A stretch of 64,000 bases of DNA from Gemmatimonadota bacterium (lineage in GTDB: Bacteria; Gemmatimonadota; Gemmatimonadetes; Gemmatimonadales; Gemmatimonadaceae), in the NCBI GenBank assembly GCA_003171215.1, contig PMYN01000016.1:46970-110969 (forward strand). The letters are read 5' to 3'. Shown here piece after piece: positions 22,115-59,572 of this stretch. Below the pieces are notes generated by a model that was given only the letters and a program-made list of their open reading frames with translations, did no database searches and was not told where the DNA came from. Numbering within the stretch: position 1 is the stretch's first letter; each line of letters begins with the position of its first letter. The position numbers and the translations under genes are program-made.

Positions 22115-22895
22115 TCAGCGACGCGAGCGATATCTCGACCGTTTCCGCCCTGTGTTTGGCATTCTGACGTCAGATATAGCTACGAACCCCCTGTCATCCG
22201 GATGCAACCGCGCGGCTACGTCCGCGCCGTTTCGCGAAAGTGCTCGCTCGCATAGCCGAGCATCGAGGCATATTCGGGGCTCACCGTCACACCGCCGCTG
22301 GCGAGATCGATATCGTAGAGTCCGACGTTGCCGGCCTTGAGGGCGAGGTGCAAGCGCTGGTCGCTCGCCCTCGAGGAACTCCGCCAGATCGACTTTCACG
22401 ACGAGAAACCAGGGCGAATCCGGTATGGCGCGGAGCTCTGCGAGCACCGGTACACGATGCTGATCCGTGCCGTCCCAGGCGCCCTGCTGCGAAAGCACGG
22501 CGCCCACGACCGGAGGATCGGACGAGCGTATGGACGAAAGAGGAGGTCGACCGCAGCGCATTGAGGCGCACGACATCCGAGCCGACCTGTTCAATGAGCA
22601 GTGTCTCCGCGCTGCGGCTTGGTGTAGGCCAGCGCTGCATCATCGGGAACAGTCCATCGCTGGCTCGCACGCGTAGCATCACCACGGCCATGGCCCGGCC
22701 GGCGGCGTTGCGGACGACGGCGGCCACGTCGACATGCACCCCACCAGACGTCCGGAAGAGACCCGAAATCTCCGCGGTTCCGTTCGTGACCGCACGCTGG
22801 GTCAACGGGTGCCGCACGCGGTCAGCGCGTTCCTCGAGAGAGCCGGCGAGCTGCGGGGATAGCGCCCGTTCTACGGTAATTATCGGCAGGTTTTT
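22115..22895 (-). pseudogene. frameshifted relic of a paralog of the adjacent kinase's sensor region (periplasmic domain plus start of a PAS domain)
   Basis: Three different minus-strand frames carry matching pieces. FRTSGGVHVDVAAVVRNAAGRAMAVVMLRVRASDGLFPMMQRWPTPSRS matches FRTPDGVMVDVIVAVRDTSGKPLGAILLRARANDRLFAQFRQWPGASRT. VPVLAELRAIPDSPWFLVVKVDLAEFLEGE matches VRVLADLRPVPGTPWFVVVQLNESEFLDGE. These are followed by LALKAGNVGLYDIDLASGGVTVSPEYASMLGY and, in another frame, RLHPDDRG. No TM segment or kinase core follows. Confidence 0.6.
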
Positions 22896-22998
22896 CCGGA
22901 ACTTGAGTGATTCCGTCGAAGTGTTACTCGACGAGCAGTTTCGGGTAGTATTCCGCCGGACCGCCGGCACAGACGCCGTGCGAGAACGCCGCGTGCGC

Positions 22999-23199
22999 TT
23001 ACTTCTGCAACGCCGGCGAGGGCGATCCGAGAGACGCTGAATCCATCGGTTCGCCGTCACCGAGCCGAATCGCCTCGAGGATCCGGTCGGGGTCCGTAGG
23101 GCGCTCGCGCGCGAGGATGTTGCGCAGTTCGCTGGCGATGAGTCGCAGTGACGCATCCGAGTCGTAGAGGATCTCGGCCATCGGTCGCGGGGTGGTCAT
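22999..23199 (-). CDS. small hypothetical protein, tightly coupled downstream of cheY
   Basis: 66-aa ORF. Its ATG lies 1 nt after the cheY stop (TGAcATG). G/C-rich third positions. No family recognised. Confidence 0.4.
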   Translation of the reverse strand: MTTPRPMAEILYDSDASLRLIASELRNILARERPTDPDRILEAIRLGDGEPMDSASLGSPSPALQK

Positions 23200-27720: not shown

Positions 27721-30510
27721 ATGACGACTCCCATCGGCACCGTGCAGGGCCTCGCCAGCGGCATTCAGTGGCAAACCATGATCCAGCAGATCGTGGCCGC
27801 CGACTCCGCGCGCGAACTCACTCCCGTCACTACCCAACAAACGGCAGATACCAACGCGAGCGCCGCATGGACGCAGTTCCAAACTGTGATGGGAACATTC
27901 CAGACGGCCGCCGCCGCGCTCGCCGATCCCACCGCATTCGATCTCTTCACGGCCACCGCGCCCAACAGCCCGTCGTCGCAACACGCGCTCCTCTCGGCCA
28001 CCGCCACCACCGGCGCGCAACCCGGCACGTATGCGATGCAGGTGCTCTCGCTCGCCTCCGCCGAGAGCTTGAGCGGTACATCGTTCAGCAGTTCCACGTC
28101 GCCCCGCAACATCAGCGGCCAGTTCGACCTGAACGGCGTCGCCATCACGATCGCCTCGACCGATTCGCTCAGCTCGATTGCCGACAAGATCAACGCCGCC
28201 AACGCCGGCACCACGCCGAGCGGCGTGCAGGCGACCATCCTCTCGGGTACGGGCGGGTCGCACCTGGTGCTCACGAGTGCCACCACGGGTTCGCAGGGGA
28301 TCTCGGTGGTGGACGACACGTCGACGAATGGCACCATGGTCGGAACGTTCGCGGCGCTGGGCTTCACCGACAGCACCGCCGTCGCGAACATCGCCGCCTC
28401 GGGCGCGACACAGACGTTCGCGATGTCGAGCGCCACGCAATCGATCGGCTCGTTGCTCAGTCTCACACCGCCGGCCGGCACGACGATCCTCGTGGGCGGC
28501 AAGCAGATCGCAGTGGACCTGAGCACCGACTCCCTCACGACCATCGCCGCCAAGATCAACACCGCGACCGGAAACCCCAAGGCCGCGAGCGTGCAGTCCA
28601 CCACCGTCGGTTCCACCACGACCTACCAACTCGTCACCGACGGCACCGTAGAAGCCGACCCGTCCGCCACGCCCGCCTCCGACAGCGTCCGCGCACTGGC
28701 AATGCTCGGCTTCACGAAAGCCGGCACCGGCGGCATCGCACAGGTGGTGCAGAGCGCGAACACGTTCACGGACACGAGCACGAGCGCCGGGGCGACTGCT
28801 GGCACACTGCTCTCGAACTTTCAGGTAAACGGCCAGTCGCTCGGCCTCGCCACCGGCGACACCATCAACATCGGCGGCACCCGCGGCGACGGATCGAGCG
28901 TGACCAAGACGTTCACTGTCGCGGACGGTTCCACCATGGCGGACCTTCTCGCCGCCATCAACGATCCGACCTCGGGGTTCGGAACCACGTCCCGCGCTGC
29001 GAATGCGTCGCTTACCTCGACGGGCACGACTGCGGGACAGATCGCCCTCACCGACGGCACCACCGGAGACTCGCAACTCTCGCTCGCCCTCTCCGTGACG
29101 CGCAGCCACAGCGGCGGCACCGGCGCCACGGTCAGCCTCGGCTCGTTCGGAGCCGGCAACGGCGGAACCGTCGGCCGCAGCCGTGAAGTGACCGCCGGCG
29201 CCGACGCGCAGTTCAAGATCGACGGCCAGACGCTCACCCGCAGCTCGAACTCCGTCACCGACGCGATCGCCGGCGTAACGCTGAACCTGCAGAACGCCGA
29301 GCCCGGAACGACCGTCAACCTGACGATTGCGCGCGACACCTCCGGGATCGAATCGAAGATCAACGGCTACGTCACCGCCTACAATGCGGTGCAGAGCTTC
29401 ATCACCACCAACACCGACAACGGCAGCAGCTCGAGCACGCTCAGCTCCACGAGCGCGCAGACGACCACCGCGGGCCCGCTCGCGAACGACATGTCCATCA
29501 AGTCGATGGGCTACTCGATCACGTCGGCATTGATCCAGTCGGTGACCGGGCTGGCCAGCGGAAGCACCTACACGGCCGCCTCGCAAGCCGGACTCATGAC
29601 CGACTCGACCGGCAAGCTCTCGCTGAACACCACGACATTCGAGGCCGCACTACAGAACAACTTCGCTGCGGTGAAGAACATTTTCGTGACGTCGGGCACG
29701 ACGACCGGCAGCGGCCTGAGCTTCGTCTCGGCCGGAACGTCCGCGAAAGCGTCGACCACTCCGTACGCAGTGACGATCTCGCAGGCCGCCACCATGGCGA
29801 GCGTCACGGGATCGGCGTTCTCGACGTACACCGCGACCGCCGGCTCGCCCGACACGATGTCCATCGCCGACACCGCGACCGGCAAGAGCACCGCCATCAC
29901 GCTGGCGAACGGCGACTCCATCGACACGATTGTGCAGCGGATGAACGACGCGTTCTCGCAGCAGGGCATGCACCTGCAGGCGGTGAGGACGGCCGGCAGC
30001 CAAGTGCAGCTCGTCACGAGCGACTACGGCACGACCGGCGGATTCACGGTGTCGGGCACGAACGCGCTCGGCATCGCGGCGCAGAAGTATGCGGGCCTGA
30101 ACGTGGCGGGAAGCATCAACGGCGTTGCGGCGACCGGGAGCGGCCAGTACCTGACCGGCGCCTCGACCAACGCCAGCGCCGGCCTCATCGTTCGTTACAC
30201 CGGCACGGCCGCAGGCACCGGCACCGTCGCTCTCTCACTCGGCGTCGGCGGCCTCACCAACGAGATCGCCACCGGCCTCACGGCCGCGAACACCGGCTCC
30301 ATCGCCCTCGAGATCAACCAGACGCAGCAGGCGGCGACCAACCTCCAGTCGCAGATCGACTCCATCCAGCAGCAGCTCGCCACAGAGCAGACGAACCTCA
30401 CCGCCGAGTACGTGAAGATGGAATCGGCCATGTCCTCCGCGCAGTCGCTCGGCGCCACGCTCACATCACAGATCAATCAGCTCACGCCTGTCACGTCCAG
30501 CACGGCGTGA
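27721..30510 (+). CDS. fliD: flagellar filament cap protein FliD (HAP2), unusually long at 929 aa
   Basis: The N-terminus GLASGIQWQTMIQQIVAADSARELTPV matches the FliD N-terminal pattern. The C-terminus QQAATNLQSQIDSIQQQLATEQTNLTAEYVKMESAMSSAQS matches the FliD C-terminal coiled coil. The long Thr/Ser/Gly/Ala-rich middle contains repeated modules. Confidence 0.85.
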   Translation: MTTPIGTVQGLASGIQWQTMIQQIVAADSARELTPVTTQQTADTNASAAWTQFQTVMGTFQTAAAALADPTAFDLFTATAPNSPSSQHALLSATATTGAQPGTYAMQVLSLASAESLSGTSFSSSTSPRNISGQFDLNGVAITIASTDSLSSIADKINAANAGTTPSGVQATILSGTGGSHLVLTSATTGSQGISVVDDTSTNGTMVGTFAALGFTDSTAVANIAASGATQTFAMSSATQSIGSLLSLTPPAGTTILVGGKQIAVDLSTDSLTTIAAKINTATGNPKAASVQSTTVGSTTTYQLVTDGTVEADPSATPASDSVRALAMLGFTKAGTGGIAQVVQSANTFTDTSTSAGATAGTLLSNFQVNGQSLGLATGDTINIGGTRGDGSSVTKTFTVADGSTMADLLAAINDPTSGFGTTSRAANASLTSTGTTAGQIALTDGTTGDSQLSLALSVTRSHSGGTGATVSLGSFGAGNGGTVGRSREVTAGADAQFKIDGQTLTRSSNSVTDAIAGVTLNLQNAEPGTTVNLTIARDTSGIESKINGYVTAYNAVQSFITTNTDNGSSSSTLSSTSAQTTTAGPLANDMSIKSMGYSITSALIQSVTGLASGSTYTAASQAGLMTDSTGKLSLNTTTFEAALQNNFAAVKNIFVTSGTTTGSGLSFVSAGTSAKASTTPYAVTISQAATMASVTGSAFSTYTATAGSPDTMSIADTATGKSTAITLANGDSIDTIVQRMNDAFSQQGMHLQAVRTAGSQVQLVTSDYGTTGGFTVSGTNALGIAAQKYAGLNVAGSINGVAATGSGQYLTGASTNASAGLIVRYTGTAAGTGTVALSLGVGGLTNEIATGLTAANTGSIALEINQTQQAATNLQSQIDSIQQQLATEQTNLTAEYVKMESAMSSAQSLGATLTSQINQLTPVTSSTA

Positions 30511-30547: not shown

Positions 30548-30946
30548 ATGAGGAAGTCGTACGCCAGCGCCAGCGCCAGCGCCTACCGCGAGGCCGAAGT
30601 GCTCTCGGCGCCGCCCGGCCGGCTCGTGGTCATCACATTCGACGGCGTGCTCGCATCGCTGACCCGCGCACGCGTCGGCATCGCCATGTCGAATCACGAA
30701 GTCCTGCTCTCGTCCGTCGACAAGGCGCGCGGCCTGCTCTGCCAGCTGCTCACGTCGCTCGACCGCGACCGCGGCGGCGACATCGCGAAACGCCTCTTCG
30801 CGCTCTACCTGTTCGTCCTCGGCGAGCTCCTCGAAATCTCGATGCGTCCGGATCTCGGGCGCCTCGACCGGAATATTTCACTCATTCGCGAGCTGCGCGA
30901 CGCATTCGACCAGATCGCATCGCAGCCCAAGGGACAGCTCTCGTGA
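30548..30946 (+). CDS. fliS: flagellin-specific chaperone FliS
   Basis: YREAEVLSAPPGRLVVITFDGVLASLTRA ... KARGLLCQLLTSLD ... IAKRLFALYLFVLGEL fits the FliS four-helix-bundle pattern. Confidence 0.85.
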   Translation: MRKSYASASASAYREAEVLSAPPGRLVVITFDGVLASLTRARVGIAMSNHEVLLSSVDKARGLLCQLLTSLDRDRGGDIAKRLFALYLFVLGELLEISMRPDLGRLDRNISLIRELRDAFDQIASQPKGQLS

Positions 30947-31308
30947 CACCGGCTGCCACGTTCGCCATCGAACGATTCTCGCATCTCTCGAGACTATTCG
31001 ATCACGCCCTGACGCACGCCCGAGGCGATTCCCTCGCACTGTCCGAAATCCTCGACCAGGCCGCGATGCTCCTCGACGAAATCGCTCCAGCGGTCGCCGC
31101 CTGCAAGGGCGGTCCGGAAGAAGACATGGTCCTCGAGGCCGCATGCGATGCCCGCGAGCATCACGTCGCCCTGGTGCAGTCGATCGGACTGGAGATCGAG
31201 CGCATCGCGAAGGACCTCGATCGCCTCTCGAGGTCGTCCAAGGCAACTTCGCGCTACGGCGCCGCCATGCAGGGTCCCAAAATCAGGCTGCTCGAACGTT
31301 CGGCCTGA
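30943..31308 (+). CDS. hypothetical helical protein at the fliT position (possible export chaperone)
   Basis: 121-aa ORF. The start overlaps the fliS stop. Sequence appears helical. No family recognised. Confidence 0.4.
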   Translation: MTPAATFAIERFSHLSRLFDHALTHARGDSLALSEILDQAAMLLDEIAPAVAACKGGPEEDMVLEAACDAREHHVALVQSIGLEIERIAKDLDRLSRSSKATSRYGAAMQGPKIRLLERSA

Positions 31309-37732: not shown

Positions 37733-39059
37733 GCTCCTCGCGCGACGCGTCGCCGAGCTGCCGCGGCTCGCGTCGTACGGGCGGGTGGTGCGCATCACCG
37801 GTCTCGTCGTCGAGGCCGCCGGCATCGACGTGGGACTCGGCGAGATCTGCAGCATCTCCTCGCTCTCCGACGGCCGCTCGGTGCTCGCGGAAGTCTGCGG
37901 CTTTCACGACAAGGGTGTGCTGCTCATGTCGCTCGGCGAGCTCGAAGGGATTCACCCGGGTTCCATGGTCGTGCCGCTTGGCCGGTCGATGGGCGTGCAG
38001 GTCGGCGAGTCGCTCCTCGGCCGGGTCCTCAACGGTCTGGGCCAGCCGATCGACGGCGGACCGAAGCTCGAACTCACCGAACGCATGCCGCTCGCGGCGG
38101 AGCCGCCGAATCCGCTGCACCGCCAGGTGATCAGCGAGCCGCTCGAAACGGGAGTTCGCGTGATCGACGGGCTGCTCGCGATCGGCCGCGGCCAGCGCAT
38201 CGGCATCTTCTCCGGCAGCGGCGTGGGCAAGAGCACGCTGCTCGGCATGATCGCGCGACAGGCGAAGGCTGACGTGAACGTCATCGCGCTGCTCGGCGAG
38301 CGCGGACGCGAAGTGCGCGACTTCATCGAGAACGCGCTCGGGCCGGAAGGACTGGCGCGTTCCGTCGTGATCGTCGCGACCGGCGACCAGGCCGCGCTCG
38401 TCCGGGCGCGCGGCGCGCTCGTCGCGACCGCGATCGCCGAATATTTCCGCGACCAGGGCAAGCACGTGATGCTGATGGTCGATTCCGTGACCCGGGTAGC
38501 CATGGCGTGGCGCGAGATCGGGCTCGCCGTCGGCGAGCCGCCAACGACCAAGGGATATCCGCCGTCGGTGTTCGCGTCGCTGCCGCGTCTCCTCGAGCGC
38601 GCGGGCAACGCTGCGACCGGCGGCATCACGGGCATCTACACCGTCCTCGTGGACGGCGACGACTTCAACGAGCCCGTGGCTGACGCGGCTCGCTCGATTC
38701 TCGACGGCCACATCGTGCTCACGCGAAAGCTCGCGGGCGCCGCCCACTATCCGGCCGTCGACGTGCTCGAGAGCAAGAGCCGCGTGAAGGATCACGTGAC
38801 CACGCCCGAACAGCAGGCGGCGGCACTCAAGCTGCTTCGCTCGGAGGCAGCGTTCCGCGAGAAAGAGGATCTCATCCTCGTCGGCGCGTATCTGAAGGGC
38901 ACCGATCCGGCGATCGACGCCGCCTTGCAGCTTCGCGATCCGGTCCTCGCGTTCCTCAGGCAGCCGCCATCCGAACACTCGCCGATCGCGAAGACGAGGA
39001 GCGAGCTTCTCTCACTCGTCGCTCGCCTCGACGCCGCCACCGTGCGGAAGACCGCGTGA
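37725..39059 (+). CDS. fliI: flagellum-specific ATPase FliI
   Basis: Walker A GSGVGKSTLLGMI, Walker B MLMVDSVTR, and TGIYTVLVDGDDFNEPV. Confidence 0.95.
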   Translation: MPKLLARRVAELPRLASYGRVVRITGLVVEAAGIDVGLGEICSISSLSDGRSVLAEVCGFHDKGVLLMSLGELEGIHPGSMVVPLGRSMGVQVGESLLGRVLNGLGQPIDGGPKLELTERMPLAAEPPNPLHRQVISEPLETGVRVIDGLLAIGRGQRIGIFSGSGVGKSTLLGMIARQAKADVNVIALLGERGREVRDFIENALGPEGLARSVVIVATGDQAALVRARGALVATAIAEYFRDQGKHVMLMVDSVTRVAMAWREIGLAVGEPPTTKGYPPSVFASLPRLLERAGNAATGGITGIYTVLVDGDDFNEPVADAARSILDGHIVLTRKLAGAAHYPAVDVLESKSRVKDHVTTPEQQAAALKLLRSEAAFREKEDLILVGAYLKGTDPAIDAALQLRDPVLAFLRQPPSEHSPIAKTRSELLSLVARLDAATVRKTA

Positions 39060-39529
39060 CCGCCCCGCACTTCCGGTTCCGCCTGCAGCGACTGCTCGAC
39101 CTCCGAGAACTCGCCGAGCGCAAGGCGGCCATCGGGCTCGCGACGGCGAGGAACGCCGAGGAAGAGGCGCGCCGTGAGCAGGAGTTGCTCGCCACGCAGC
39201 GGGCGGCGGCGCGCGAACTGCTGCTGCCGCCGGCCGGCGCACGCGGTCGCGTGTCCGAACTCCGCCAGGTCGCCGTGCTGCTCGAGCGCCTCGACGCGGG
39301 TGCCGCGCAAGCTGAGTACAAGGTTTCCAAGGCAGCACACCAGGTGCACCAGAAGCAGGTGCAGCTGGGCGAGAGTGTGACGGACCGTCGCGTGCTCGAT
39401 CGCCTGAAGGAGCGGCACCACGAGAGCTGGCGGATCGCCGAGGAGCGGGCAGATCGCGCGGTGATGGACGAGATCGGACGCGCGCGATTCGCCGAGCGCC
39501 CAGACCAAACCCGCACACCGGACGAATGA
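39056..39529 (+). CDS. fliJ: flagellar export chaperone/stalk protein FliJ
   Basis: 157-aa coiled coil. FRFRLQRLLDLRELAERKAA ... fits the FliJ pattern. The GTG start overlaps the fliI stop. Confidence 0.75.
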   Translation: MTAPHFRFRLQRLLDLRELAERKAAIGLATARNAEEEARREQELLATQRAAARELLLPPAGARGRVSELRQVAVLLERLDAGAAQAEYKVSKAAHQVHQKQVQLGESVTDRRVLDRLKERHHESWRIAEERADRAVMDEIGRARFAERPDQTRTPDE

Positions 39530-39533: not shown

Positions 39534-40142
39534 ATGGCAAAACGCATCCTGATGTTCGTCGCGACATTCGCGATCGCGCTGGGCGGAGCTACTGGCATCG
39601 TGGTGCTGCGCTGGAAACCCGTCGCGGCGCCTCCGATCGCTTCTTCCGCAGCGCTGACGGACCGGACCACGTCGCCCGATTCTTCGGCTGCGCGCGACAG
39701 CGCCGCGACAATCGACACGGCAAAGTCGACCAAGAGCTCGCCTGCCACCGCGCAGCCTGCGCCGGCGGCGGCGCACGACTCCGTCGTCCTCGCGTCGGCA
39801 TTGCCTGCGCTCAGCGCGCCCAGCGCGGCCGGAGCACAGATCACGCCGGGCACGCCGGGCACGCCGGGCACGCCGAAGTCGCCCGGCCAAACCGCAGCGG
39901 CCACGCAACAGCAGATCACGCCGGTCAGCTCGATGCTGGCCGGCGGGCGACTCAGCAAGATCTTCACCGCGATGCCGGCCCGCGAGGCCGCAAAAGTGCT
40001 CGAACAGATGGACGATTCGGACGTGAGGGAAATACTCGGCCGACTCAGTGACAAGAAGGCCGCCGAGTTGCTCGCGCTGCTTCCGACCGCACGCGCAGCC
40101 ACCATCAGCAAGGCATTGACGGGTCCGGGGACAGGCAAGTGA
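39534..40142 (+). CDS. membrane-anchored MgtE_N-like flagellar protein (YlxF/FlbB/MotE-like)
   Basis: N-terminal TM, a long Ala/Ser/Pro linker with GTPGTPGTP (9-bp DNA repeat x3), and a C-terminus KIFTAMPAREAAKVLEQMDDSDVREILGRLSDKKAAELLALL typical of the MgtE N-terminal-like fold. Confidence 0.55.
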   Translation: MAKRILMFVATFAIALGGATGIVVLRWKPVAAPPIASSAALTDRTTSPDSSAARDSAATIDTAKSTKSSPATAQPAPAAAHDSVVLASALPALSAPSAAGAQITPGTPGTPGTPKSPGQTAAATQQQITPVSSMLAGGRLSKIFTAMPAREAAKVLEQMDDSDVREILGRLSDKKAAELLALLPTARAATISKALTGPGTGK

Positions 40143-41968
40143 TGATCGCGACGGCGACGCTGCCCCTCCCGACCGTTCCGGCGACGGCGTCCGACGCGAC
40201 CGCGTCACAGGGCATGGTCGCCGTCGGCACGGGAACAATGACTCCCGCCGAGCAGGCGGCGTTCGCCGGTGTGCTCGCGCTATTGATCGAGCCCAAGGCG
40301 GCCGGCGTTCCGACGGCCGCGGTTCAGCCGGCCGCAAGCGACGATAGCGGCGACGCCGGGCAGTCGACGGAAGATTCGTCGGACGAGCCCAAGACCGATG
40401 CGCACAAAACGCTCGACCCTGCGAGCGATCTCACGGGCATCGCGCGCACGCTGAACGCATCGATGATCGTGCGCGATCTCGGCGCGCTCCAGCCGGTGTT
40501 TCGCGCGAAACTGGAGACGGTGATTCAGCGCATGAGCGAGGAGTACGGGCATACCGTTTCCGTCACCGAAACGTACCGCAACCAGGCCCGGCAGGATCAG
40601 CTCCTTCAGCAGGGACGGACGAAATCGGGGCCGATCGTAACGTGGACGAGCCACTCGTTGCACACGCGGGGCCGTGCCGCAGACCTGCTCATCGACGGCT
40701 CGTGGAACAATCCCGTGGGATTCCAGCATCTGCAGCAGATCGCGAGCGAGGAAGGCTTGTCGACGCTCGGCCCGCGCGATCCCGGACACGTCGAGTTGCG
40801 CGAAGACCCGCTCGGCACCATCACGAGCATGGCGCAGATCACCGGGATCGGCGTACAGGGCACGCCCGTCGCGACGCACCAGACGTCGGTGAACACGCCG
40901 TTCATCTTGTCCGGTGCGCGCGTTGCCGCGCAGGCGCCGCAAGCTGTCGCGGCTTTTCAGGTTGACGAGGTCGACCAGCCGGCGCAGGCCGCACCTGTTG
41001 GATCGGAAGTGCAGGTTGCTCAGGTTGCTCAGCTCGCTCAGGTCGCGAGAGTGGCTGTGGTCGCACCCGTTGCGCAGGTGGCGCAGGTGGCGCCCACCGC
41101 GCCGGTCGCGGCGCTCGTGCATTCGGAGCGGGCGTCGGCGCCGGCTGTCCGAGCGGCGATCACTCCGCCCGCTTCGGCCGCAGCGCCCGCAGTGCCCGCA
41201 GCGCCCGCACCAGCATCGCATCACTCATCGGCGCCCACGATCGAGACACCGGCTCGTGGCGCTTCGTACAAGGGCGAAGCGACACCGGCAGCCTCTTCTG
41301 CGTCGGGCGGCGGATCGTCCACGGACCCGGGAAGTGATCGCCGGCGCCGCGACCCTTCAAGCACCGCCGCGCCCGCGGCGGAATCGGTTGCGCCCGCCAG
41401 GACGACGGCCGCTCCGCCGCTCGCGGCCGCGTCGCAAATTTCCGGCGCCGAAACATCGTCAACGATCGAGACTGGAACGACCGCGCCGGTCGCCGATACC
41501 GGCACCGCTGCGCGCGCTGCGGCGCTGATCGCGTTGCAAGAGGCAAAGGACGCGTTGCCGGTGTCGCACATGCTGTTGCAACTCGACAATCCGGACGGTG
41601 GACTGGATCGCATTCGCGTCGGCGTTCGCGGTGCGATGGTCGGCGCAACTATTGACACGCACGATCCAGTTGCCGCCACCGACATGGCAAGAAACGTCCA
41701 GCAGCTCGCCAGCGCGCTGCAGGCGCGCGGATTGGACGCAGACTCGCTTCGCGTGCGGGTCGCCGGAGGTGCGAGCATGGCATCCCCGGGAGACCTCGCT
41801 CGCGCGGTGGCAGCGAGCGGTGATCGATCCGCGCCTCCCCTTGGCACGCTTTTCGCACAAGCTGGATCCCCATCATCACGCACGCGCGGCGAAGCGCAGG
41901 GGCAACGGTCCCAGCAGGACCCTTCTCGCCAACGCGCTCGCAAGGATCAACAAGGAGCTCAGCAGTGA
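40139..41968 (+). CDS. fliK: FliK-position protein: hook-length-control (Flg_hook-like) C-terminal domain plus an embedded LAS/M15-type zinc peptidoglycan peptidase domain
   Basis: Residues ~105-222 (nt ~40451-40804) read ETYRNQARQDQLLQQGRTKSGPIVTWTSHSLHTRGRAADLLIDGSW...GPRDPGHVE, the Peptidase_M15_4/VanY-like signature with an H, D, H ligand pattern. The C-terminus LLQLDNPDGGLDRIRVGVRGAMVGATIDTHDPVAATDMARNVQQLASALQARGLDADSLRVRV is FliK-like. Both ends overlap the neighbouring genes. Confidence 0.65.
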   Translation: MMIATATLPLPTVPATASDATASQGMVAVGTGTMTPAEQAAFAGVLALLIEPKAAGVPTAAVQPAASDDSGDAGQSTEDSSDEPKTDAHKTLDPASDLTGIARTLNASMIVRDLGALQPVFRAKLETVIQRMSEEYGHTVSVTETYRNQARQDQLLQQGRTKSGPIVTWTSHSLHTRGRAADLLIDGSWNNPVGFQHLQQIASEEGLSTLGPRDPGHVELREDPLGTITSMAQITGIGVQGTPVATHQTSVNTPFILSGARVAAQAPQAVAAFQVDEVDQPAQAAPVGSEVQVAQVAQLAQVARVAVVAPVAQVAQVAPTAPVAALVHSERASAPAVRAAITPPASAAAPAVPAAPAPASHHSSAPTIETPARGASYKGEATPAASSASGGGSSTDPGSDRRRRDPSSTAAPAAESVAPARTTAAPPLAAASQISGAETSSTIETGTTAPVADTGTAARAAALIALQEAKDALPVSHMLLQLDNPDGGLDRIRVGVRGAMVGATIDTHDPVAATDMARNVQQLASALQARGLDADSLRVRVAGGASMASPGDLARAVAASGDRSAPPLGTLFAQAGSPSSRTRGEAQGQRSQQDPSRQRARKDQQGAQQ

Positions 41969-42666
41969 CCGCACCGATCACGGGGACGTCCTCGACGACC
42001 AACAAGCTTCCGCTCAGCGGCTCGACCAGTTCGGGCGGTGCCAATCCTCTCGCCGGCATGAACGACTCGCTGGGAGAGAACGCGTTCATGCAGCTGCTGG
42101 TCGCGCAGATGACGCATCAGGACCCGACGGCGCCGACCGACAGCACCGCCATGGCATCGGAGCTCGCTCAGTTCTCCTCGCTCCAGGAACTCACGACCAT
42201 CAACACGACGCTGCAGGGACAGGGCACGACCACCACCGATCTCGCGAGCGCGGTAAACAACTCCGCGGCGCTGAGCCTCATCGGCAAGACCGTCACGGCC
42301 GCCAGCAGCCAGGTCGCAGTCGGTTCCAATGGGACCACGACCGTGAGCACGACGGTCCCCTCCACCGGAGGCGACCTCATCCTGACGATCACCGACTCGA
42401 ACGGGAACAAAGTTGCGACGAAGGACCTCGGACAGGTCACGGCGGGCACGCAGTCCGTTTCGCTCGCCGGCCTGACGGGCGGCCTCGCCAGCGGCGAGTA
42501 CAACGTGAAGTTCACCCTCACCGATGCGTCGGGCACGGTCACAAATCCCGCCTCGATGATCACCGCGAAGATCGACGGCGTCACGTTCAGCAGCAGCGGC
42601 GCGGAGGCAACCAGCGGCCCGCTGACGATTCCGATCGGCTCCATCGCCTCCGTCACTTCCAACTAA
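41965..42666 (+). CDS. flgD: hook capping/scaffold protein FlgD
   Basis: LGENAFMQLLVAQMTHQDPTAPTDSTAMASELAQFSSLQEL, plus a C-terminal beta-rich (FlgD Ig-like) part. Confidence 0.9.
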   Translation: MTAPITGTSSTTNKLPLSGSTSSGGANPLAGMNDSLGENAFMQLLVAQMTHQDPTAPTDSTAMASELAQFSSLQELTTINTTLQGQGTTTTDLASAVNNSAALSLIGKTVTAASSQVAVGSNGTTTVSTTVPSTGGDLILTITDSNGNKVATKDLGQVTAGTQSVSLAGLTGGLASGEYNVKFTLTDASGTVTNPASMITAKIDGVTFSSSGAEATSGPLTIPIGSIASVTSN

Positions 42667-42689: not shown

Positions 42690-44015
42690 ATGATGCCATC
42701 GCTTTTCGCCGGCGTGTCCGGTCTGCAGAATCACCAGACTGAAATGGACGTCATTGGCAACAACATCGCGAATGTCGACACCGTCGCGTTCAAGTCGAGC
42801 TCCGTCACGTTCAAGGAGGGATTCGCGCAGCTCCTGCAGGGCGCGAGCCGTCCACCGGGCAACCAGGGCGGCATCAACCCGATCCAGGTGGGACTCGGCA
42901 TGCAGATCGGTTCGATCAACACCAATATGACGCAGGGCAACCTGCAGTCCACCGGCGTGAACACGGACGTCGCAATCAACGGCGATTCGTTCTTCGTCGC
43001 GCGGCAGGGGAACCAGAGCTTCTATTCACGGTCCGGAAACTTCCAGATCGACGCACAGGGTAATCTCGTGGAACCGGACAACGGCTTCATCGTGCAGGGC
43101 AAGATGGCGGTGAACGGCACATTCTCGGATACCGTCGGCGACATCCAGCTTCCGTTCGGCCAGAAGGCGGCGGCGAATCCGACGAGCACCATGGAGCTGG
43201 GCGGCAATCTCGACGGTTCGCAACCGGTCTTCGACACCACCGATCTCAACACCACAAGGGCCGACGATGGATTCACCGTCGACACAATGGCCAACCCGGC
43301 AAACGCCAACTCCTTCACCACCACTACGGTGACCGCGTACGATTCACTCGGCACCAAGTACGACGTGAAAGTCGACCTCTGGAAGAGCTCGGACACCGAG
43401 TGGAGCTGGCAAGTGGACAAGACCAGCCTCCCCGGATGCGACCCGGACTCGATCGCGGGAAGCGGCACTCTGGCGTTCAATGGGGACGGCTCGCTCGATA
43501 CCACCGACACGGCGGGGACTGCGATCACGTTCACTCCTCCGGGAACAGGAGCGATCCCGGTGACCATCGCGATGGACCCCGGCTCAGGCGTGAACGGCAT
43601 CACCCAGTACGCCGGCACGACGACCGCGGTATTGCAGAACCAGAACGGCTACTCCTCCGGCACACTGGAAAATTTCTCAATCGACAACAATGGCGTGATT
43701 ACGGGTTCGTTCACCAACGGCGTGAACGTGTCGCTGGCGCAGATCGCGCTTGCCGACTTCAACAACCCGGCCGGTCTACTCCGCGTGGGAGACAACATGT
43801 ACCAGCAATCGGGCAACTCCGGCGGAGCCGTTGTCGGGTTTGCCGGAGCGGGAAGCCAGTCGACGCTCACGAGCGGCGCGCTCGAGATGTCGAACGTCGA
43901 TCTCGCGACGGAGTTCACCAACATGATCGTGGCCGAGCGCGGCTACGAGGCCAACGCGAAGACGATCACGACTTCGGACAACATGCTGCAATCGCTGATC
44001 CAGATGGTGCAGTGA
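42690..44015 (+). CDS. flgE: flagellar hook protein FlgE
   Basis: MMPSLFAGVSGLQNHQTEMDVIGNNIANVDTVAFKSS ... LEMSNVDLATEFTNMIVAERGYEANAKTITTSDNMLQSLIQM. Only the part of the 805-aa track ORF downstream of ATG 42690 is the gene. Confidence 0.95.
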   Translation: MMPSLFAGVSGLQNHQTEMDVIGNNIANVDTVAFKSSSVTFKEGFAQLLQGASRPPGNQGGINPIQVGLGMQIGSINTNMTQGNLQSTGVNTDVAINGDSFFVARQGNQSFYSRSGNFQIDAQGNLVEPDNGFIVQGKMAVNGTFSDTVGDIQLPFGQKAAANPTSTMELGGNLDGSQPVFDTTDLNTTRADDGFTVDTMANPANANSFTTTTVTAYDSLGTKYDVKVDLWKSSDTEWSWQVDKTSLPGCDPDSIAGSGTLAFNGDGSLDTTDTAGTAITFTPPGTGAIPVTIAMDPGSGVNGITQYAGTTTAVLQNQNGYSSGTLENFSIDNNGVITGSFTNGVNVSLAQIALADFNNPAGLLRVGDNMYQQSGNSGGAVVGFAGAGSQSTLTSGALEMSNVDLATEFTNMIVAERGYEANAKTITTSDNMLQSLIQMVQ

Positions 44016-44115
44016 CCTGAGTCGAGCTGAGTCGAGCTGAGTCGAGCTGAGTCGAGCTGAGTCGAGCTGAGTCGAGCTGAGTCGAGCTGAGTCGAGCTGA
44101 GTCGAGCTGAGCTGA
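44016..44115. repeat. perfect 10-bp tandem repeat (gtcgagctga) x9 with partial copies at both ends
   Basis: Counted directly. Units start at 44021, 44031 ... 44101. The array begins 1 nt after the flgE stop and ends ~35 nt before the terminator hairpin. Confidence 0.98.
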
Positions 44116-45978: not shown

Positions 45979-46329
45979 ATGACCGACGCAGCCTCGGCTT
46001 CCATGACTGAGCCCACAGCATCACTCCCGACGTTCGCCGAACTCTCTCCCACAGCCTCGTCGCAGGGAGAAGTCCCGATCGCAATGCTCCTCGACCTCTC
46101 GCTCCCGGTCGCCATCGAACTCGGCCGCACCAAGATGACCGTGCAGGACATTCTTCGCCTCGGCCGCGGTTCGGTGATTCAGCTCGACCGTCTCGCTGGT
46201 GAGCCGATCGACATCTATGTGGGCGATCGCCGCTTCGCCGAGGGTGAGGTGGTGGTGATTGACGAGCATTTCGGCATTCGTATCACGCGCGTCCTGTCGA
46301 GCGCGCCCGCGGTCGACGCGGCTGCCTGA
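45979..46329 (+). CDS. fliN: switch protein FliN
   Basis: LLDLSLPVAIELGRTKMTVQDILRLGRGSVIQLDRLAGEPIDIYVGDRRFAEGEVVVIDEHFGIRITRV (SpoA domain). Confidence 0.92.
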   Translation: MTDAASASMTEPTASLPTFAELSPTASSQGEVPIAMLLDLSLPVAIELGRTKMTVQDILRLGRGSVIQLDRLAGEPIDIYVGDRRFAEGEVVVIDEHFGIRITRVLSSAPAVDAAA

Positions 46330-46342
46330 CGAATCGCCTGCG

Positions 46343-47587
46343 ATGAACGTCGCTTCATTCCTCGGCGTGCTGGGTGTGCTGGGCTTCGTGCTCACGCTCC
46401 TGGTCATCACGCTCAGGCTGCTCAAGCGATACGCGCCATTCGCGAACGGCGCGAACCAGCGCATGAAGCTCGAGGTCGTGCAACGGCTTCCGCTCGGGCC
46501 GCGGCAATCGATCGCCGTCGTGAAGATCGGCGAGGAGTACGTCGCCGTGTCGGTTGGTGACGGCGGCGTTCGCCGGATCGCCGACGTCGCGGCGCCGGGG
46601 CCGGAGACTTCGCGGGTGTCCGGCCCGGCCGATGAAGGAACGAACTCGCGTCCTGCATTTCGCGACGTCCTGAGCCGGACGTTCAAGGCCGGCGCGTTCG
46701 TGCTGTTGATCGCCGGCGCAGCGCACGCGCTCAACGCGCAACAGCCCGCGACGTCCAAAGGTTCCAGCCCGGCGACGGCGAAGCAGCCGGACTCCGCATC
46801 AATGAAATCGCCCGCCGCCGCGCAGGGGAAATCGCCCACCGCCGCGCAAGGGAAGACGCCCGCCAAGGCCGCGACGAAACCGGTGAGCGTCGACACGATG
46901 CTGTCGAAACTCGCGCCACGCCTCGACCTCCGCGTCGGAAATGAGAGCGCCGGCGGCCTCAGGCTCTCCGGCACCGTCGGTATCGTCGTAATGATGGGTC
47001 TTCTCACGCTCCTGCCGACGCTCGTGCTGATGATGACCGCCTTCACGCGAATCTTCATCGTCCTCGGATTCCTGCGGCAGGCACTCGGCACGCAGAGCGC
47101 GCCTCCCACGCAGCTCGTCGCGGGATTTGCGCTGCTGCTGACCGGATTCGTGATGGCACCGACGCTCGAACAGGTGAACGCGTCGGCGATCCAGCCCTGG
47201 ATGGACGGCAAGATCGAGCAGAGCGCCATGTTCGCCGAGGGCGTCAAGCCGTTTCGCGCGTTCATGCTGCGCCAGACGCGCGAGCGCGACCTCTCCACGT
47301 TCATGGATCTCAGCCGCCAGCCGCGCGTGGCCCGGGCAGAGGATGTGCCCCTGGTCGTGCTCGTTTCGGCGTTCGTGACCAGCGAACTGCGCACGTCGTT
47401 CCAGATCGGCTTCGCGCTCTTCCTCCCGTTCATCGTGATCGACGTCGTCGTCGCATCCGTGCTCATGTCCATGGGCATGATGATGCTGCCGCCGGTGATG
47501 ATCTCGCTGCCGTTCAAGCTCCTCCTCTTCGTGCTCGTGGACGGCTGGACGCTCGTCGTGAACGGTCTCATTCAGAGCTTCCACTGA
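46343..47587 (+). CDS. fliP: single ORF encoding a FliO-like N-terminal module fused to export-gate protein FliP
   Basis: The N-terminus FLGVLGVLGFVLTLLVITLRLLKRY...MKLEVVQRLPLGPRQSIAVVKIGEEYVAVSVGDGGV is FliO-like. After a linker with a 24-bp duplication (KSPAAAQG/KSPTAAQG) comes a signal-like AFVLLIAGAAHALNAQ, then the FliP core LLTLLPTLVLMMTAFTRIFIVLGFLRQALG...FKLLLFVLVDGW. There is no in-frame stop between the two modules. Confidence 0.8.
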   Translation: MNVASFLGVLGVLGFVLTLLVITLRLLKRYAPFANGANQRMKLEVVQRLPLGPRQSIAVVKIGEEYVAVSVGDGGVRRIADVAAPGPETSRVSGPADEGTNSRPAFRDVLSRTFKAGAFVLLIAGAAHALNAQQPATSKGSSPATAKQPDSASMKSPAAAQGKSPTAAQGKTPAKAATKPVSVDTMLSKLAPRLDLRVGNESAGGLRLSGTVGIVVMMGLLTLLPTLVLMMTAFTRIFIVLGFLRQALGTQSAPPTQLVAGFALLLTGFVMAPTLEQVNASAIQPWMDGKIEQSAMFAEGVKPFRAFMLRQTRERDLSTFMDLSRQPRVARAEDVPLVVLVSAFVTSELRTSFQIGFALFLPFIVIDVVVASVLMSMGMMMLPPVMISLPFKLLLFVLVDGWTLVVNGLIQSFH

Positions 47588-51857: not shown

Positions 51858-52434
51858 ACGCGAGACCGTCGAGGAACTGCGCCGGCGCCCGCACGGCGCG
51901 GTACGAGTGCTGGTCGCCGGCGCGACGAGTGCAAGCGGCAGCGCGGACGTCGCCGCGATGCTCACCACCGCGCTCACCATGGCGGGTTTGCGAAACGACA
52001 GCGTCCATGTCGTGCACGCCGGCGCCATGCTGGACGGCCTGCACTCCGCCTCAGCGGCAGGTGCGAAACGGTTCGTGGTCGTCACCGGCGGTGGCGCGGC
52101 CGCGCTCGCGTCGGCGTTCGCAATGGTCAAGGCAATCGAGACGCGCCATCCCGGTGCGCGAATCGAGGTGCTTGTCACAAGGCAGGACGAATCGCGCGCG
52201 CACGCCTCATACCTGCGTGTGCGCTCGGCGTCCGAGCGGTTTCTCGGTCGTGAGGTGGGTTTCGCCGGTGCTTTTCCAGATCTCGATGCAGGCCCGGTGG
52301 GCGAGTGCGACGCAGCGGACCCGACGACGCGCCGGGCCACGCGCGCCAGCCGCGCGGCGCGCATTTGGGCCGCCAGACTGCTCGCGGAATGCAGCGAAGA
52401 AGCGTGGCCGGAAGCCGCGCATTCGATGGACTAA
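51844..52434 (+). CDS. short FlhG/MinD-like protein with a decayed P-loop (at the flhG position, TTG start)
   Basis: Lies between flhA and fliA. VRVLVAGATSASGSADVAAMLTTALTMAG aligns in spacing with MinD/FlhG iaV.SGKGGVGKTtvs.NLa.aLa..G but has no lysine. FVVVTGGGAAALASAFAMVKAI resembles vlvVt.pe..sl.dAYa.iK.l. At 196 aa it is shorter than a canonical FlhG. Confidence 0.35.
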   Translation: MLPPERETVEELRRRPHGAVRVLVAGATSASGSADVAAMLTTALTMAGLRNDSVHVVHAGAMLDGLHSASAAGAKRFVVVTGGGAAALASAFAMVKAIETRHPGARIEVLVTRQDESRAHASYLRVRSASERFLGREVGFAGAFPDLDAGPVGECDAADPTTRRATRASRAARIWAARLLAECSEEAWPEAAHSMD

Positions 52435-52444
52435 CGGAGGACAC

Positions 52445-53209
52445 ATGGAACAGGACACGGATTCACGTTGGGCTCGCCTCGCTACCGGTGACGAAGAGGC
52501 TCGGCAACAATTGCTCAACGAACACCTCGGCTTGGTGTACTTCGTCGCACGGCAGATCAGCACCGGCGTCGCGAAGTCCGTCGAGTTCGACGAGCTGGTG
52601 AGCGCGGGATCCTTCGGACTCATCAACGCGCTGCACAGCTTCGACCCGGCGCGCGGCCTCGCCTTCAGCACGTACGCCGCCCCCCGAATTCGCGGCGCCG
52701 TGCTCGACGAGCTGCGCCGGCAGGACAGCGTCCCGCGCTCGATCCGCCGCAAGACGCGCGAGCTGAACGGCGCGGCCGAGGCAGTCGGCCGCAAGAACGG
52801 ACAGCGGCCGTCCGAGCGGGAGATCGCGGAGCAGCTCGGCATCGACCTGCCCACGCTGTGGCGGTGGCAGGCGGACCTCGAGGGCGCGGTGCATCTCTCG
52901 CTCGATCGGAGCGCGCAGCCGGAAGGCGACGACGCGGCCTCGCCGTCGGACACCATGGCGATCGCCGATCCCGACGACGTCGAAGAGCGGATGACCTTGC
53001 ATCAGGAAGTCGCGCTGCTCCGCGACGCGATCCTCCGACTCGGCAAACAGGAGCGCACGGTGCTGTCACTCTACTACTTCGAGGAACTGAAGCTGCACGA
53101 GATCGCGAAGGTGCTGGAGCTGACCGAGTCACGCGTGTCGCAGATCCGGTCGAAGGCGATCGGCAACCTTCGCAAGCTCATGGCGCCTCTCCGGGAAGCG
53201 GTGGCGTAG
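52445..53209 (+). CDS. fliA: flagellar sigma factor FliA (sigma-28)
   Basis: Region 2 LVYFVARQI ... FDELVSAGSFGLINALHSFDPARGLAFSTYAAPRIRGAVLDELR. Region 4 ERTVLSLYYFEELKLHEIAKVLELTESRVSQIRSKAIGNLR. Confidence 0.92.
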   Translation: MEQDTDSRWARLATGDEEARQQLLNEHLGLVYFVARQISTGVAKSVEFDELVSAGSFGLINALHSFDPARGLAFSTYAAPRIRGAVLDELRRQDSVPRSIRRKTRELNGAAEAVGRKNGQRPSEREIAEQLGIDLPTLWRWQADLEGAVHLSLDRSAQPEGDDAASPSDTMAIADPDDVEERMTLHQEVALLRDAILRLGKQERTVLSLYYFEELKLHEIAKVLELTESRVSQIRSKAIGNLRKLMAPLREAVA

Positions 53210-56035: not shown

Positions 56036-57087
56036 TCATCCCCGGCGCGCGTGTTCGCGCACTGAGCGTCGCGATCGCGGCACTCGTTGCGTCGCACGCC
56101 GCGCCCGCACAAGACGTGCGCGTTCGCGACCTCGTGCTCGCCGACGTCGCGCCGCCCGTGCGGCTGATGGGATATGGACTGGTGACCGGCCTGAACGGCA
56201 CCGGCGACCGCGTCTCCGGCACGTCCGGATCTGGCCAAACCGTGCAGTCGATCGTGAACCTGCTCAGCCGCTTCAATATCGCCATTCCCCCGACCCTGCT
56301 CCGCACGCGCAACGTCGCGGCGGTCCTGGTGACGTCCGAAGTCTCGACGTATCTCCGTCCCGGCGGTCGATTCGAAGTCGCGGTCTCGTCGCTCGGCGAC
56401 GCGCAGTCGCTTCGCGGCGGCGTGCTCTGGATGACTCCCCTCGTTGCCGATGCGGGCGGGAAGCCGCTCGCGGGAGCGCAGGGGCCGGTCATTATCAGCT
56501 CCGGCGCCACGAACACGAGAATGTTCAGTTCCGTCATCGGAACGACCGGCACAATTCCGAACGGCGGCGTGCTCGAGGCTGACCTCCCACGCCCGAAGGC
56601 CGCGGCGTCCACCATGTTGCTGCTGCGGGAGCCCGACATCTCCACGGCGTCGCGCATTGCGGCGGCCGTCGATTCCGCGCTGGGCGGAAAGGGACTCGCG
56701 CTGGTGCAGGATCCAGGCGCGGTGCGACTCGCGTTGAAGGACACGAGCGCCGGTCTCGCCTTCGCTCTCGCCGCGATCCGCGACATCAAGGTGCGTCCTG
56801 TGCGAACGGCCCGCATCATCGTGGACAGTCGCGACGGCACGATCGTCGCCGGCGGCGACCTCGTGGTGGGCGAGGCGGTCGTGAGCCATGGCGGCATCAC
56901 GATCAGTATCGGCGCGAAGGCGGATTCAACCACGGTACCGGGCGACATTCGCGCCACCGCGGGCGCGACGGTCCAGACCATCGGCGCCGCGCTCCAGGCG
57001 GCACAGGCGTCTGCGAGCGACATCGCGGCGATCTTCGAGGCGCTGCGCAGCGTCGGTGCGATCTCGGCCGAGGTCGTGGTCAGGTGA
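56032..57087 (+). CDS. flgI: P-ring protein FlgI
   Basis: RVRDLVLADVAPPVRLMGYGLVTGLNGTGDR ... VTSEVSTYLRPGGRFEVAVSSLGDAQSLRGGVLWMTPL. The GTG start overlaps the flgH stop. Confidence 0.92.
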   Translation: MIIPGARVRALSVAIAALVASHAAPAQDVRVRDLVLADVAPPVRLMGYGLVTGLNGTGDRVSGTSGSGQTVQSIVNLLSRFNIAIPPTLLRTRNVAAVLVTSEVSTYLRPGGRFEVAVSSLGDAQSLRGGVLWMTPLVADAGGKPLAGAQGPVIISSGATNTRMFSSVIGTTGTIPNGGVLEADLPRPKAAASTMLLLREPDISTASRIAAAVDSALGGKGLALVQDPGAVRLALKDTSAGLAFALAAIRDIKVRPVRTARIIVDSRDGTIVAGGDLVVGEAVVSHGGITISIGAKADSTTVPGDIRATAGATVQTIGAALQAAQASASDIAAIFEALRSVGAISAEVVVR

Positions 57088-57431
57088 CCGCGCCGGTGCC
57101 GGCGGGCGCAGCGCAGGCGCCAGCCGATCCGCGGACGGCGCGCACCGAGCAGCTGCAGCGGACCGCCAGACAGCTCGAGGGCGTGTTCGTCCTCCAGATG
57201 CTGAAGGCCATGCGCGCCACCGTTCCGAAGGGCGGCGTCTCCGACGCAAACAGCGGCGAGGAGACCTTCACGGCGATGCTCGACGAAAAAGTCGCGGACA
57301 AGGTTCCCGCGCAGTGGCAGCACGGCTTGACCGATGCACTCATGAAGCAGCTCATGGGGCGGGACGCGACGTTCCACGCCTCGGGCACACCAACGACTTC
57401 CATCCCGCCAGCTCCGGAGCAACCCCAATGA
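57084..57431 (+). CDS. flgJ: single-domain FlgJ (rod-binding domain only, no glycosidase domain)
   Basis: 115 aa. LQRTARQLEGVFVLQMLKAMRATVPKGGV...GEETFTAMLDEKVADKV fits the Rod-binding (FlgJ N-terminal) pattern. The ORF ends without any muramidase-like sequence. Confidence 0.75.
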   Translation: MTAPVPAGAAQAPADPRTARTEQLQRTARQLEGVFVLQMLKAMRATVPKGGVSDANSGEETFTAMLDEKVADKVPAQWQHGLTDALMKQLMGRDATFHASGTPTTSIPPAPEQPQ

Positions 57432-59362: not shown

Positions 59363-59572
59363 ATGCTCATCCTGAGCCGGAAGGCGGGCGATTCCGTGCT
59401 GATCGACGGCGGCGTGCGCATCGTCGTGCTGGGCATCGAGGGATCCTCGGTGCGGTTGGGAATCGACGCGCCGACCGACGTGCGCGTGCTGCGCGGCGAG
59501 ATCCTGAAGCAAGTCGAGCGCGAGAACGAACGCGCTCGCGTCAGCCTCGATTCTCGCGCTGCCGAAGTCTGA
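59363..59572 (+). CDS. csrA: carbon storage regulator CsrA (flagellar, FliW-partnered type)
   Basis: MLILSRKAGDSVLIDGGVRIVVLGIEGSSVRLGIDAPTDVRVLRGEI is the canonical CsrA core. It is followed by a short C-terminal extension. Confidence 0.95.
   Translation: MLILSRKAGDSVLIDGGVRIVVLGIEGSSVRLGIDAPTDVRVLRGEILKQVERENERARVSLDSRAAEV

Follow-up and report, generated by a model that had tools for sequence, protein, structure and literature searches.

How the flagellar rod passes the cell wall where FlgJ is non-lytic is still being worked out, and the need for dedicated hydrolysis is actively debated (PMC13584718, 2026). FlgJ is known both as a wall hydrolase and as an export substrate of the flagellar type III system (PMC13584718). 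Where FlgJ has a single domain it is elsewhere partnered with a separate, FlgJ-binding lytic transglycosylase, as with SltF in Rhodobacter and BB0259 in Borrelia. A further separate lytic enzyme partnered with a single-domain FlgJ is PleA of Caulobacter. Ply500-like endopeptidases of the LAS type serve other envelope systems, namely TagX for passage of the type VI secretion system through the wall in Acinetobacter (PMC5061870) and ChiX for chitinase secretion in Serratia, and Salmonella secretes its flagellar ruler FliK without interruption while rod and hook are being built (PMC13344023). Here we compare with these systems a flagellar locus of a Gemmatimonadota bacterium, contained in a 64-kb stretch of high-GC DNA (~66% GC; contig PMYN01000016.1; hereafter the window), in which the gene occupying the fliK slot encodes both a predicted zinc peptidase of the LAS/M15 type and a FliK-type switch domain. 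From comparison with homologous sequences, this fusion of FliK with a wall peptidase apparently occurs throughout the phylum Gemmatimonadota.

The gene and the parts of its protein, as read from the sequence and from AlphaFold models (with confidence given as the predicted local distance difference test, pLDDT), are as follows.

40139-41968, forward strand: target gene, FliK-type ruler plus predicted LAS/M15 peptidase; complete open reading frame (ORF) of 609 residues plus stop.
40139..40471, forward strand: N-terminal disordered region, residues 1-111, rich in A, T, P, S and D, with low pLDDT at the model edge.
40262..40276, forward strand: F42-A-G-V-L46, a motif resembling the gate-recognition motif (FxxxPhi) of early type III export substrates.
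40472..40801, forward strand: LAS/MEROPS-M15 zinc peptidase domain, Ply500/CwlK/ChiX/TagX-like, residues ~112-221.
40661..40684, forward strand: H175-x6-D182 in S173-x-H-x-x-G-x-A-x-D182, the first two predicted zinc ligands; invariant in 193 homologs, codons verified.
40778..40789, forward strand: D214-P-G-H217, the predicted catalytic acid and third predicted zinc ligand; D214 and H217 invariant in the same homologs.
40802..41500, forward strand: low-complexity linker, presumed ruler segment, residues 222-454 (233 residues; A 25%, P 11%, S 10%, V 10%, T 9%).
41501..41767, forward strand: FliK C-terminal domain, or type III secretion substrate-specificity switch (T3S4) domain, residues ~455-543.
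41768..41965, forward strand: disordered C-terminal tail rich in A, Q, S, G and R, residues 544-609, with low pLDDT.

Sequence and structure searches placed the peptidase domain consistently. A single-sequence search of the PDB matched the L-alanyl-D-glutamate peptidase Ply500 (E=2.2e-5), and a family profile built from 24 sequences matched Ply500 (2VO9) at E=6e-14 and LysB4 at E=2.5e-13, with weaker matches to LysECD7, YodJ, a Streptomyces DD-carboxypeptidase, ChiX and Hedgehog. The AlphaFold (AF2) model of the domain reached a mean pLDDT of 85.3, and its top 16 Foldseek matches were all M15/LAS peptidases, followed by Hedgehog N-domains; Ply500 (2VO9) was again the best (E=1.4e-6, 31% identity), then LysECD7, ChiX in third place, LysB4, VanX, LdcB and VanXY. 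Among phage relatives, which are 28-41% identical, the usual annotations are L-Ala-D-Glu endopeptidase, CwlK or endolysin. In the alignment with Ply500, H175 and D182 fall on His80 and Asp87, and Asp130 and His133 are matched by D214 and H217; numbering in the PDB chain index is offset by 12. The ChiX paper gives Asp130 as the proposed catalytic residue of Ply500 and His68, Asp75, His123 and the catalytic Asp120 as the ChiX set, and the H-x6-D and D-x2-H spacing of the window domain is the same as in both enzymes.

An alignment of 193 homologs, reaching down to ~35% overall identity with the window protein, revealed 100% conservation not only of H175, A180, D182, G206, D214 and H217 but also of E144, R147, R151, Q152, Q158-G159-R160, G164, T168-W169-T170 and S173, while H172 varies. 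Because metal, catalytic and substrate-side residues are all invariant across such diverged sequences, the pattern is that of an enzyme rather than a scaffold, and we read it as a working enzyme and not a decayed fold. Fold model and conservation together indicate that the domain is probably an active peptidoglycan peptidase; judging from its closest relatives only, its most likely activity would be that of an L-Ala-D-Glu stem-peptide endopeptidase. An earlier note on this DNA had proposed a LAS/M15 domain at this place, and the family-profile match, the LAS fold and the alignment of the ligands with those of Ply500 and ChiX bear this out. The QGR, S-x-H-x-x-G-x-A-x-D and downstream-H motifs that it named are present as Q158-G159-R160, S173-D182 and H217. 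Two of its details were wrong: the upstream motif is R147-x4-Q152 and not R-x3-Q, and the metal residues are not 'H172/D181', the predicted ligands being H175, D182 and H217 with D214 as the catalytic residue.

How visible this domain is depended on the method. Whole-protein Pfam and NCBIfam scans of the 609-residue protein returned sub-threshold or irrelevant matches only, so that family-level scans and profile searches were needed. Direct Pfam matches of the window domain were to M15_3 (PF08291; 17.9 bits, E=0.0034, cut-off 23.2) and VanY (PF02557; 13.4 bits, E=0.069, cut-off 25); across the 24 family members VanY was matched in 22 and M15_3 in 21, with a best E of about 1e-5. On this basis we place the domain in a divergent subfamily of the clan, outside any one Pfam family as now defined. 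A word-indexed search that used the peptidase segment by itself gave just three small VanY-like proteins, and the family came to light when 1.84 billion representative proteins were searched exhaustively with HMMER (1068 matches; 322 cluster representatives with E<=1e-30). The genome survey covered one genome per GTDB species and found a relative of the target gene in 152 genomes, of which the best 80 were examined at the locus level; a usable survey needed a subset alignment, the full family alignment being too variable. These best 80 are nearly all labeled Gemmatimonadota (Gemmatimonadales and Longimicrobiales), with a few unclassified metagenome-assembled genomes and one labeled Kuenenia.

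A fusion read from a single ORF could be an artefact, that is, separate peptidase and fliK genes joined by a sequencing or assembly frameshift, or one of the many spurious long ORFs that arise in high-GC DNA. The codon-position GC plot offers this idea some support, since GC at third codon positions (GC3) is strong in the ORF's own frame over residues 1-250 (0.82-0.87) and weaker after residue ~250, where GC at first and then at second positions (GC1, GC2) dominates the middle of the ORF and GC3 in the last third is only 0.53-0.72, against 0.82-0.90 in neighboring genes. We attribute the mid-ORF shift to the Ala/Pro/Ser/Val-rich composition of the linker, with both domains in frame, and the low-GC3 stretch at 41700-41965, which coincides with no frame change in homologs, may reflect a low-complexity tail or relaxed codon selection. 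Because a frameshift cannot be excluded by a GC plot alone, comparative data were used to settle the single-gene question. Among 150 homologs listed, most are 400-800 residues long, and in many the alignment begins near residue 105 and runs through to the C-terminus. The survey of M15-FliK fusions in databases that the earlier note had proposed revealed both domains in 181 of 196 retrieved homologs, always in the order peptidase then FliK-C and separated by linkers of 66-339 residues, and in 118/118 further homologs, including finished genomes of cultured strains; Gemmatimonas aurantiaca, G. groenlandica and strain T265 are the cultured carriers. Profile hidden Markov models run on stop-to-stop ORFs found both domains in one ORF at 75 of the 80 loci, the other 5 running off a contig end, and no separate FliK-C ORF at any of the 80. 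An independent gene caller likewise placed a single gene, of 633 residues, in this slot of a related genome, on a contig of 5.78 Mb. The frameshift between two genes, which the earlier note had itself raised, thus fails against a single ORF in every complete copy from 80 independent assemblies; the 75 complete copies, the independent call and the 118 further homologs rule the artefact out, and we leave it a vanishingly small chance. We interpret the fusion as real, old and under selection, and hold it practically certain that the architecture is real and conserved.

The remainder of the protein is what one expects of a ruler. The isolated C-terminal domain matched Pfam Flg_hook (PF02120) at E=1.1e-5 with 25.6 bits, under the 29.8-bit gathering score; 19 of 22 family members matched it as well (best E=4.1e-10), and PF02120 is precomputed on many homologs. 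An AlphaFold model from the family alignment gave this domain an alpha-beta3-alpha-beta core (pLDDT 81-95), and a fold search of 350,542 PDB chains returned, as its top two matches and with weak E-values, the PscP switch domain 5CUK (probability 1.00, E=8.6e-3) and Salmonella FliK-C 2RRL (0.99, E=0.038); to our knowledge, no other switch domain of a type III ruler has a solved structure. A sequence profile of the domain searched against PDB sequences found no FliK. The earlier note had recognized a FliK-type switch domain here, and the family-wide Flg_hook matches and the top two fold matches uphold it. It had also seen 9-bp low-complexity repeats after the peptidase, and these lie in or near the linker in four stretches (41012-41043, 41059-41110, 41166-41209 and 41506-41527).

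Gene position points the same way, the immediate surroundings being these.

39056-39529: FliJ (Pfam FliJ, E=4e-11).
39534-40142, forward strand: MgtE_N-like (YlxF-type) gene, directly upstream and overlapping the target start (Pfam MgtE_N, E=2e-8).
41965-42666, forward strand: flgD, hook cap, its start overlapping the target stop (Pfam FlgD, E=7e-18).
42690-44015: FlgE, the next gene after flgD.

The target starts at GTG 40139 (with an ATG at 40142), overlapping the stop of the MgtE_N-like gene, and its own stop overlaps the flgD start at 41965, overlaps with both neighbors that are a pattern typical of translational coupling. The ORF limits, the fliK slot and the double overlap given in the earlier note, together with the peptide strings that it quoted, all agreed with the DNA and with the Pfam identities of the neighbors. 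The order fliJ, ylxF-like, X, flgD, flgE is what we take to be that of the Bacillus subtilis fla/che operon, where X is fliK, and at 80/80 loci the target gene lies between fliG-H-I-J and flgD-flgE, with an MgtE_N-like gene upstream in nearly all. Because Pfam, fold and gene position agree and no second fliK is present, we assign the gene, on sequence and model evidence, as this organism's fliK, encoding its ruler and substrate-specificity switch protein.

We also evaluated the N-terminus for the route by which such a protein might leave the cytoplasm. The extreme N-terminus is small and non-polar (MMIATATLPL), the first 25 residues hold no Lys or Arg, and no signal peptide or transmembrane segment was found in the 609-residue protein, whose maximum 19-residue hydropathy (1.46) lies in the linker. 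Since there is neither an early Lys/Arg nor a hydrophobic segment of membrane strength, export by Sec or Tat, or membrane insertion, is unlikely. Of 156 homologs, 82 have an F-[A/S]-x-[L/V/M]-L motif within residues 20-75, with a cluster at 30-49; composition-matched shuffles gave a mean of 3.8 and a maximum of 11 (about 20-fold enrichment). In Salmonella the gate-recognition motif lies at residues 36-40 of FlgD and 39-43 of FlgE, and FliK also needs a hydrophobic N-terminus (PMC8983047). The N-terminus of the window protein appears to have both features described for early flagellar export substrates, and we predict an export signal there. In the Gemmatimonas lineage (L026 and L051; proteins P0262, the G. 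aurantiaca ortholog, and P0223) the peptidase starts at residue ~250-290, compared with ~112 in the window protein, and the extra ~150-200 residues between export motif and M15 domain include conserved-looking helical stretches, e.g., 'LLALGDAKGADARAALDA(I/L)LAQAG'.

The FlgJ encoded in the same cluster is small.

57084..57431, forward strand: FlgJ, single-domain and rod-binding only, 115 residues (Pfam Rod-binding, E=2e-10), with flgN directly after it.

It covers only positions 17-101 of the 294-position TIGR02541 model, i.e., the N-terminal third, and has no glucosaminidase domain, so the rod-binding-only FlgJ described in the earlier note stands. Family scans of about 70 ORFs across the 64-kb window found no SLT, glucosaminidase (GH73), M23 or NlpC/P60 domain, in keeping with that note's failure to see a lytic enzyme here, and Pfam and NCBIfam scans gave no GH73 match in the fliK-slot protein. 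Five ORFs in or beside the flagellar region have no Pfam or NCBIfam match (16433-17074; 17071-18969, 632 residues; 22240-23040; 30943-31308; and 59541-60209 on the reverse strand, which has only a sub-threshold NCBIfam match to ZraS, E=0.004), and within the window an unrecognized lytic enzyme could hide only in these.

Taking these results together, we lean toward a bifunctional FliK, a ruler and switch protein that would also carry a stem-peptide endopeptidase for passage of the rod through the wall. Delivery of the wall-opening enzyme by the ruler had been suggested in the earlier note, and our results are all compatible with that hypothesis. The proposal starts from the observed architecture, catalytic-residue conservation, fold, gene position, phylum-wide distribution and export-signal-like motif. 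From these we infer enzymatic activity, bond specificity, the route and timing of export, and the role in wall passage. In Gemmatimonadota, fliK would have acquired a catalytically competent M15 domain, placed after the N-terminal export signal and ahead of the ruler linker. Lacking a Sec signal or membrane anchor, the protein could reach the periplasm only via the flagellar type III apparatus, presumably N-terminus first and as an early substrate of the rod/hook class. Copies exported while the rod is still within the periplasm would emerge at the rod tip, where the M15 domain would refold, bind zinc and cut peptide stems locally, loosening the sacculus for the rod and the P-ring region and thereby supplying the lytic activity that is absent from the single-domain FlgJ of the cluster. 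Later copies would act as a conventional ruler, the linker spanning the rod-hook channel and the C-terminal T3S4 domain flipping FlhB. This suggests a flagellum whose central channel serves to export the very enzyme that opens the wall for it. When FliK carries beta-lactamase, the fusion is exported to the periplasm in Salmonella and gives ampicillin resistance (PMC13344023), which we regard as a direct precedent for a ruler-borne enzyme that refolds and works in the periplasm.

A more far-reaching version, which we offer tentatively and consider somewhat doubtful as a whole, is that across the phylum the wall-breaching enzyme moved from the rod cap to the ruler and changed from a glycosidase to a stem-peptide endopeptidase. 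The enzyme would travel unfolded along the channel of the nascent rod itself, refold at the rod tip and cut precisely where the rod passes, and the same polypeptide would later measure the hook. The domain would then be needed for efficient flagellation, and its folding or wall engagement at the tip may affect the speed of ruler transit, coupling wall passage to the timing of the switch.

Several points weigh against a wall-opening FliK. The window domain falls below the gathering threshold of every Pfam M15 family (VanY PF02557, Peptidase_M15_3 PF08291 and Peptidase_M15_4 PF13539), and the substrate of so divergent a subfamily may differ. In Salmonella dedicated hydrolysis does no more than enhance flagellation, B. 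subtilis has none, and housekeeping lytic transglycosylases encoded beyond the 64-kb window could serve the flagellum. Ruler copies exported once the outer membrane has been penetrated would mostly be lost to the medium, which seems wasteful for a periplasmic enzyme.

Other roles for the domain were weighed on the same evidence. An active, exported peptidase might instead remodel the wall around the basal body, whether by trimming stems into a docking site for the P-ring or for anchoring of the MotB/OmpA-like stator or by making space for periplasmic scaffolds; everything that argues for activity and export serves this idea equally, genes for FlgI, FlgH and FlgA are present in the cluster, as is one for a MotB that has an OmpA-like peptidoglycan-binding domain, and rod passage without wall hydrolysis is possible in some bacteria. 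We nevertheless consider it unlikely, as nothing specific points to the P-ring or stator, the activity missing from the single-domain FlgJ is the most economical link, and wall transit is the task of TagX and ChiX, the closest characterized relatives that are associated with a machine. That the M15 fold is not catalytic at all we hold to be rather less plausible: it could be a folded N-terminal head of the ruler that refolds outside the channel and pulls the ruler along, or one that finds its reference point by binding the hook cap or peptidoglycan, its active-site residues being kept for binding only. Canonical FliK does need an N-terminal region that contacts hook and cap, the exit of which speeds secretion, and a LAS fold can bind ligands without being an enzyme, the Hedgehog N-domains among our fold matches being an example, but a head of this kind sits poorly with metal ligands, catalytic Asp and substrate-side residues that are all invariant. 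Improbable as well, and the most so of these three, is an extracellular role as a flagellum-secreted lysin acting on neighboring cells (e.g., Gram-positive ones) or on free muropeptides. Rulers of the FliK type do reach the medium once the hook is external, on the Salmonella model, the domain is related to phage endolysins, and flagellar export of non-flagellar toxins is known, e.g., MakA (PMC6123715). Against such a lysin stand the strict phylum-wide conservation inside core fliK rather than in an accessory gene, the lack of the cell-wall-binding domain that lysins have, the low copy number of rulers and the obvious internal need posed by a FlgJ without a hydrolase.

Automatic database names reflect the two identities of the orthologs unevenly: we found 'flagellar hook-length control protein FliK', 'M15 family metallopeptidase' (the RefSeq name for the G. 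aurantiaca and G. groenlandica copies), 'peptidoglycan L-alanyl-D-glutamate endopeptidase CwlK', 'YcbK (DUF882)', 'D-alanyl-D-alanine dipeptidase' and 'hypothetical', and none that combines FliK and peptidase. This inconsistency probably arises because the peptidase domain is divergent and below Pfam thresholds, and through such split annotation Gemmatimonadota genomes can seem to be without fliK or to have an unexplained peptidase in a flagellar operon. The earlier note knew of no described M15-FliK arrangement, and we likewise found no description of a FliK-peptidase (M15, VanY) fusion or of Gemmatimonadota flagellar assembly in the open-access literature, an absence that is no proof for the literature as a whole. 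Both modules are of known kinds, and a hydrolase on a secreted flagellar protein is already known from FlgJ; it is their combination in FliK, itself well supported, that is surprising. If true, the proposed role would be a third solution beside dual-domain FlgJ and FlgJ with a separate lytic transglycosylase, the protein would be the first type III ruler with a catalytic domain, and the theme of a machine-dedicated Ply500-like endopeptidase, as in TagX and ChiX, would extend to flagella. The cultured carriers make the hypothesis directly testable.

The wider locus is a nearly complete flagellar regulon on the forward strand, spanning about 24.6 to 62 kb of the window. It begins with flgL-like, fliC, fliD, fliS, a sigma-54 activator, flgB, flgC, probable fliE, fliF, fliG, fliH, fliI and fliJ, continues with the MgtE_N-like gene, the target gene, flgD, flgE, fliL, fliM, fliN, fliO-P, fliQ, fliR, flhB, flhA and a sigma factor, and ends with flgF, flgG, flgA, flgH, flgI, flgJ, flgN, flgK, motA and motB. 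Several of its members are unusual in their own right. FliO and FliP form a single 442-residue ORF (46259-47587; FliO at residues 54-142, FliP at 245-437), and a FliO-FliP fusion of 452 residues is also called in a related genome (L081, 16430-17788). The filament cap FliD (27721-30510) is unusually long at 929 residues and has an extra Flagellin_IN motif. The sigma factor after flhA (51929-53209) has 426 residues with sigma-70 region 2 beginning only at residue 195, leaving an N-terminal extension of ~190 residues that matches no family, unless the true start is internal; neither flhF nor flhG was seen between flhA and this gene in the window. Between flgE and fliL, two bases past the flgE stop, lies a perfect 10-bp tandem repeat (CTGAGTCGAG; 44017-44111, 9.5 copies, 100% matches), which may have a regulatory or phase-variation role or be an oddity of the assembly; neither this repeat after flgE nor a comparable short non-triplet repeat was found in 82 related loci searched. 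Far upstream, an ORF at 4787-5635 matches the Pfam family for plasmid replication initiator protein A (RPA; E=1e-21) and adjoins a MerR-like regulator, a hint that an element which is integrated or derived from a plasmid precedes the flagellar region.

Set against the described systems, the window protein shares with FliK of Salmonella and E. coli and with the injectisome rulers YscP and PscP the C-terminal T3S4/Flg_hook domain, the slot beside flgD-flgE, a long, variable and disordered linker and N-terminal features of an early substrate. It differs in the 110-residue zinc peptidase between export signal and linker, and no sequence similarity to FliK-N was detected in it; we know of no described ruler that carries an enzyme domain. 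As a peptidase, its closest relatives in sequence and structure are Ply500, LysB4 and B. subtilis CwlK, with which it has all catalytic residues in common, whereas at 28-41% identity it has shorter D182-D214 loops, lacks a cell-wall-binding domain and is embedded in a flagellar protein. The dual-domain FlgJ of beta- and gamma-proteobacteria, a rod cap joined to a GH73 glucosaminidase, would be the functional analogue of the proposed role, in that a wall hydrolase rides on a secreted early substrate and is delivered by type III export to the growing rod; here, however, the carrier is the ruler, and the enzyme would be a LAS metallopeptidase acting on peptide stems and not a glycosidase acting on glycan strands. 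SltF and BB0259 address the same problem of a FlgJ without a lytic domain, but they are stand-alone, Sec-exported lytic transglycosylases, whereas the window protein carries a peptidase, has no signal peptide and holds its enzyme covalently as part of FliK. TagX and ChiX, L-Ala-D-Glu endopeptidases with the same H-x6-D ... D-x2-H site as the window domain, let an envelope machine or cargo cross the sacculus; two transmembrane helices anchor TagX, a holin gives ChiX access to the periplasm, and neither of them is exported by type III secretion or joined to a regulatory or ruler module. The engineered FliK-beta-lactamase fusions of the Hughes laboratory are artificial, yet they show that an enzyme placed on FliK enters the periplasm by flagellar type III export while the rod is being assembled and works once there, and by that analogy the window protein would be their natural equivalent, with an enzyme that cuts the wall.

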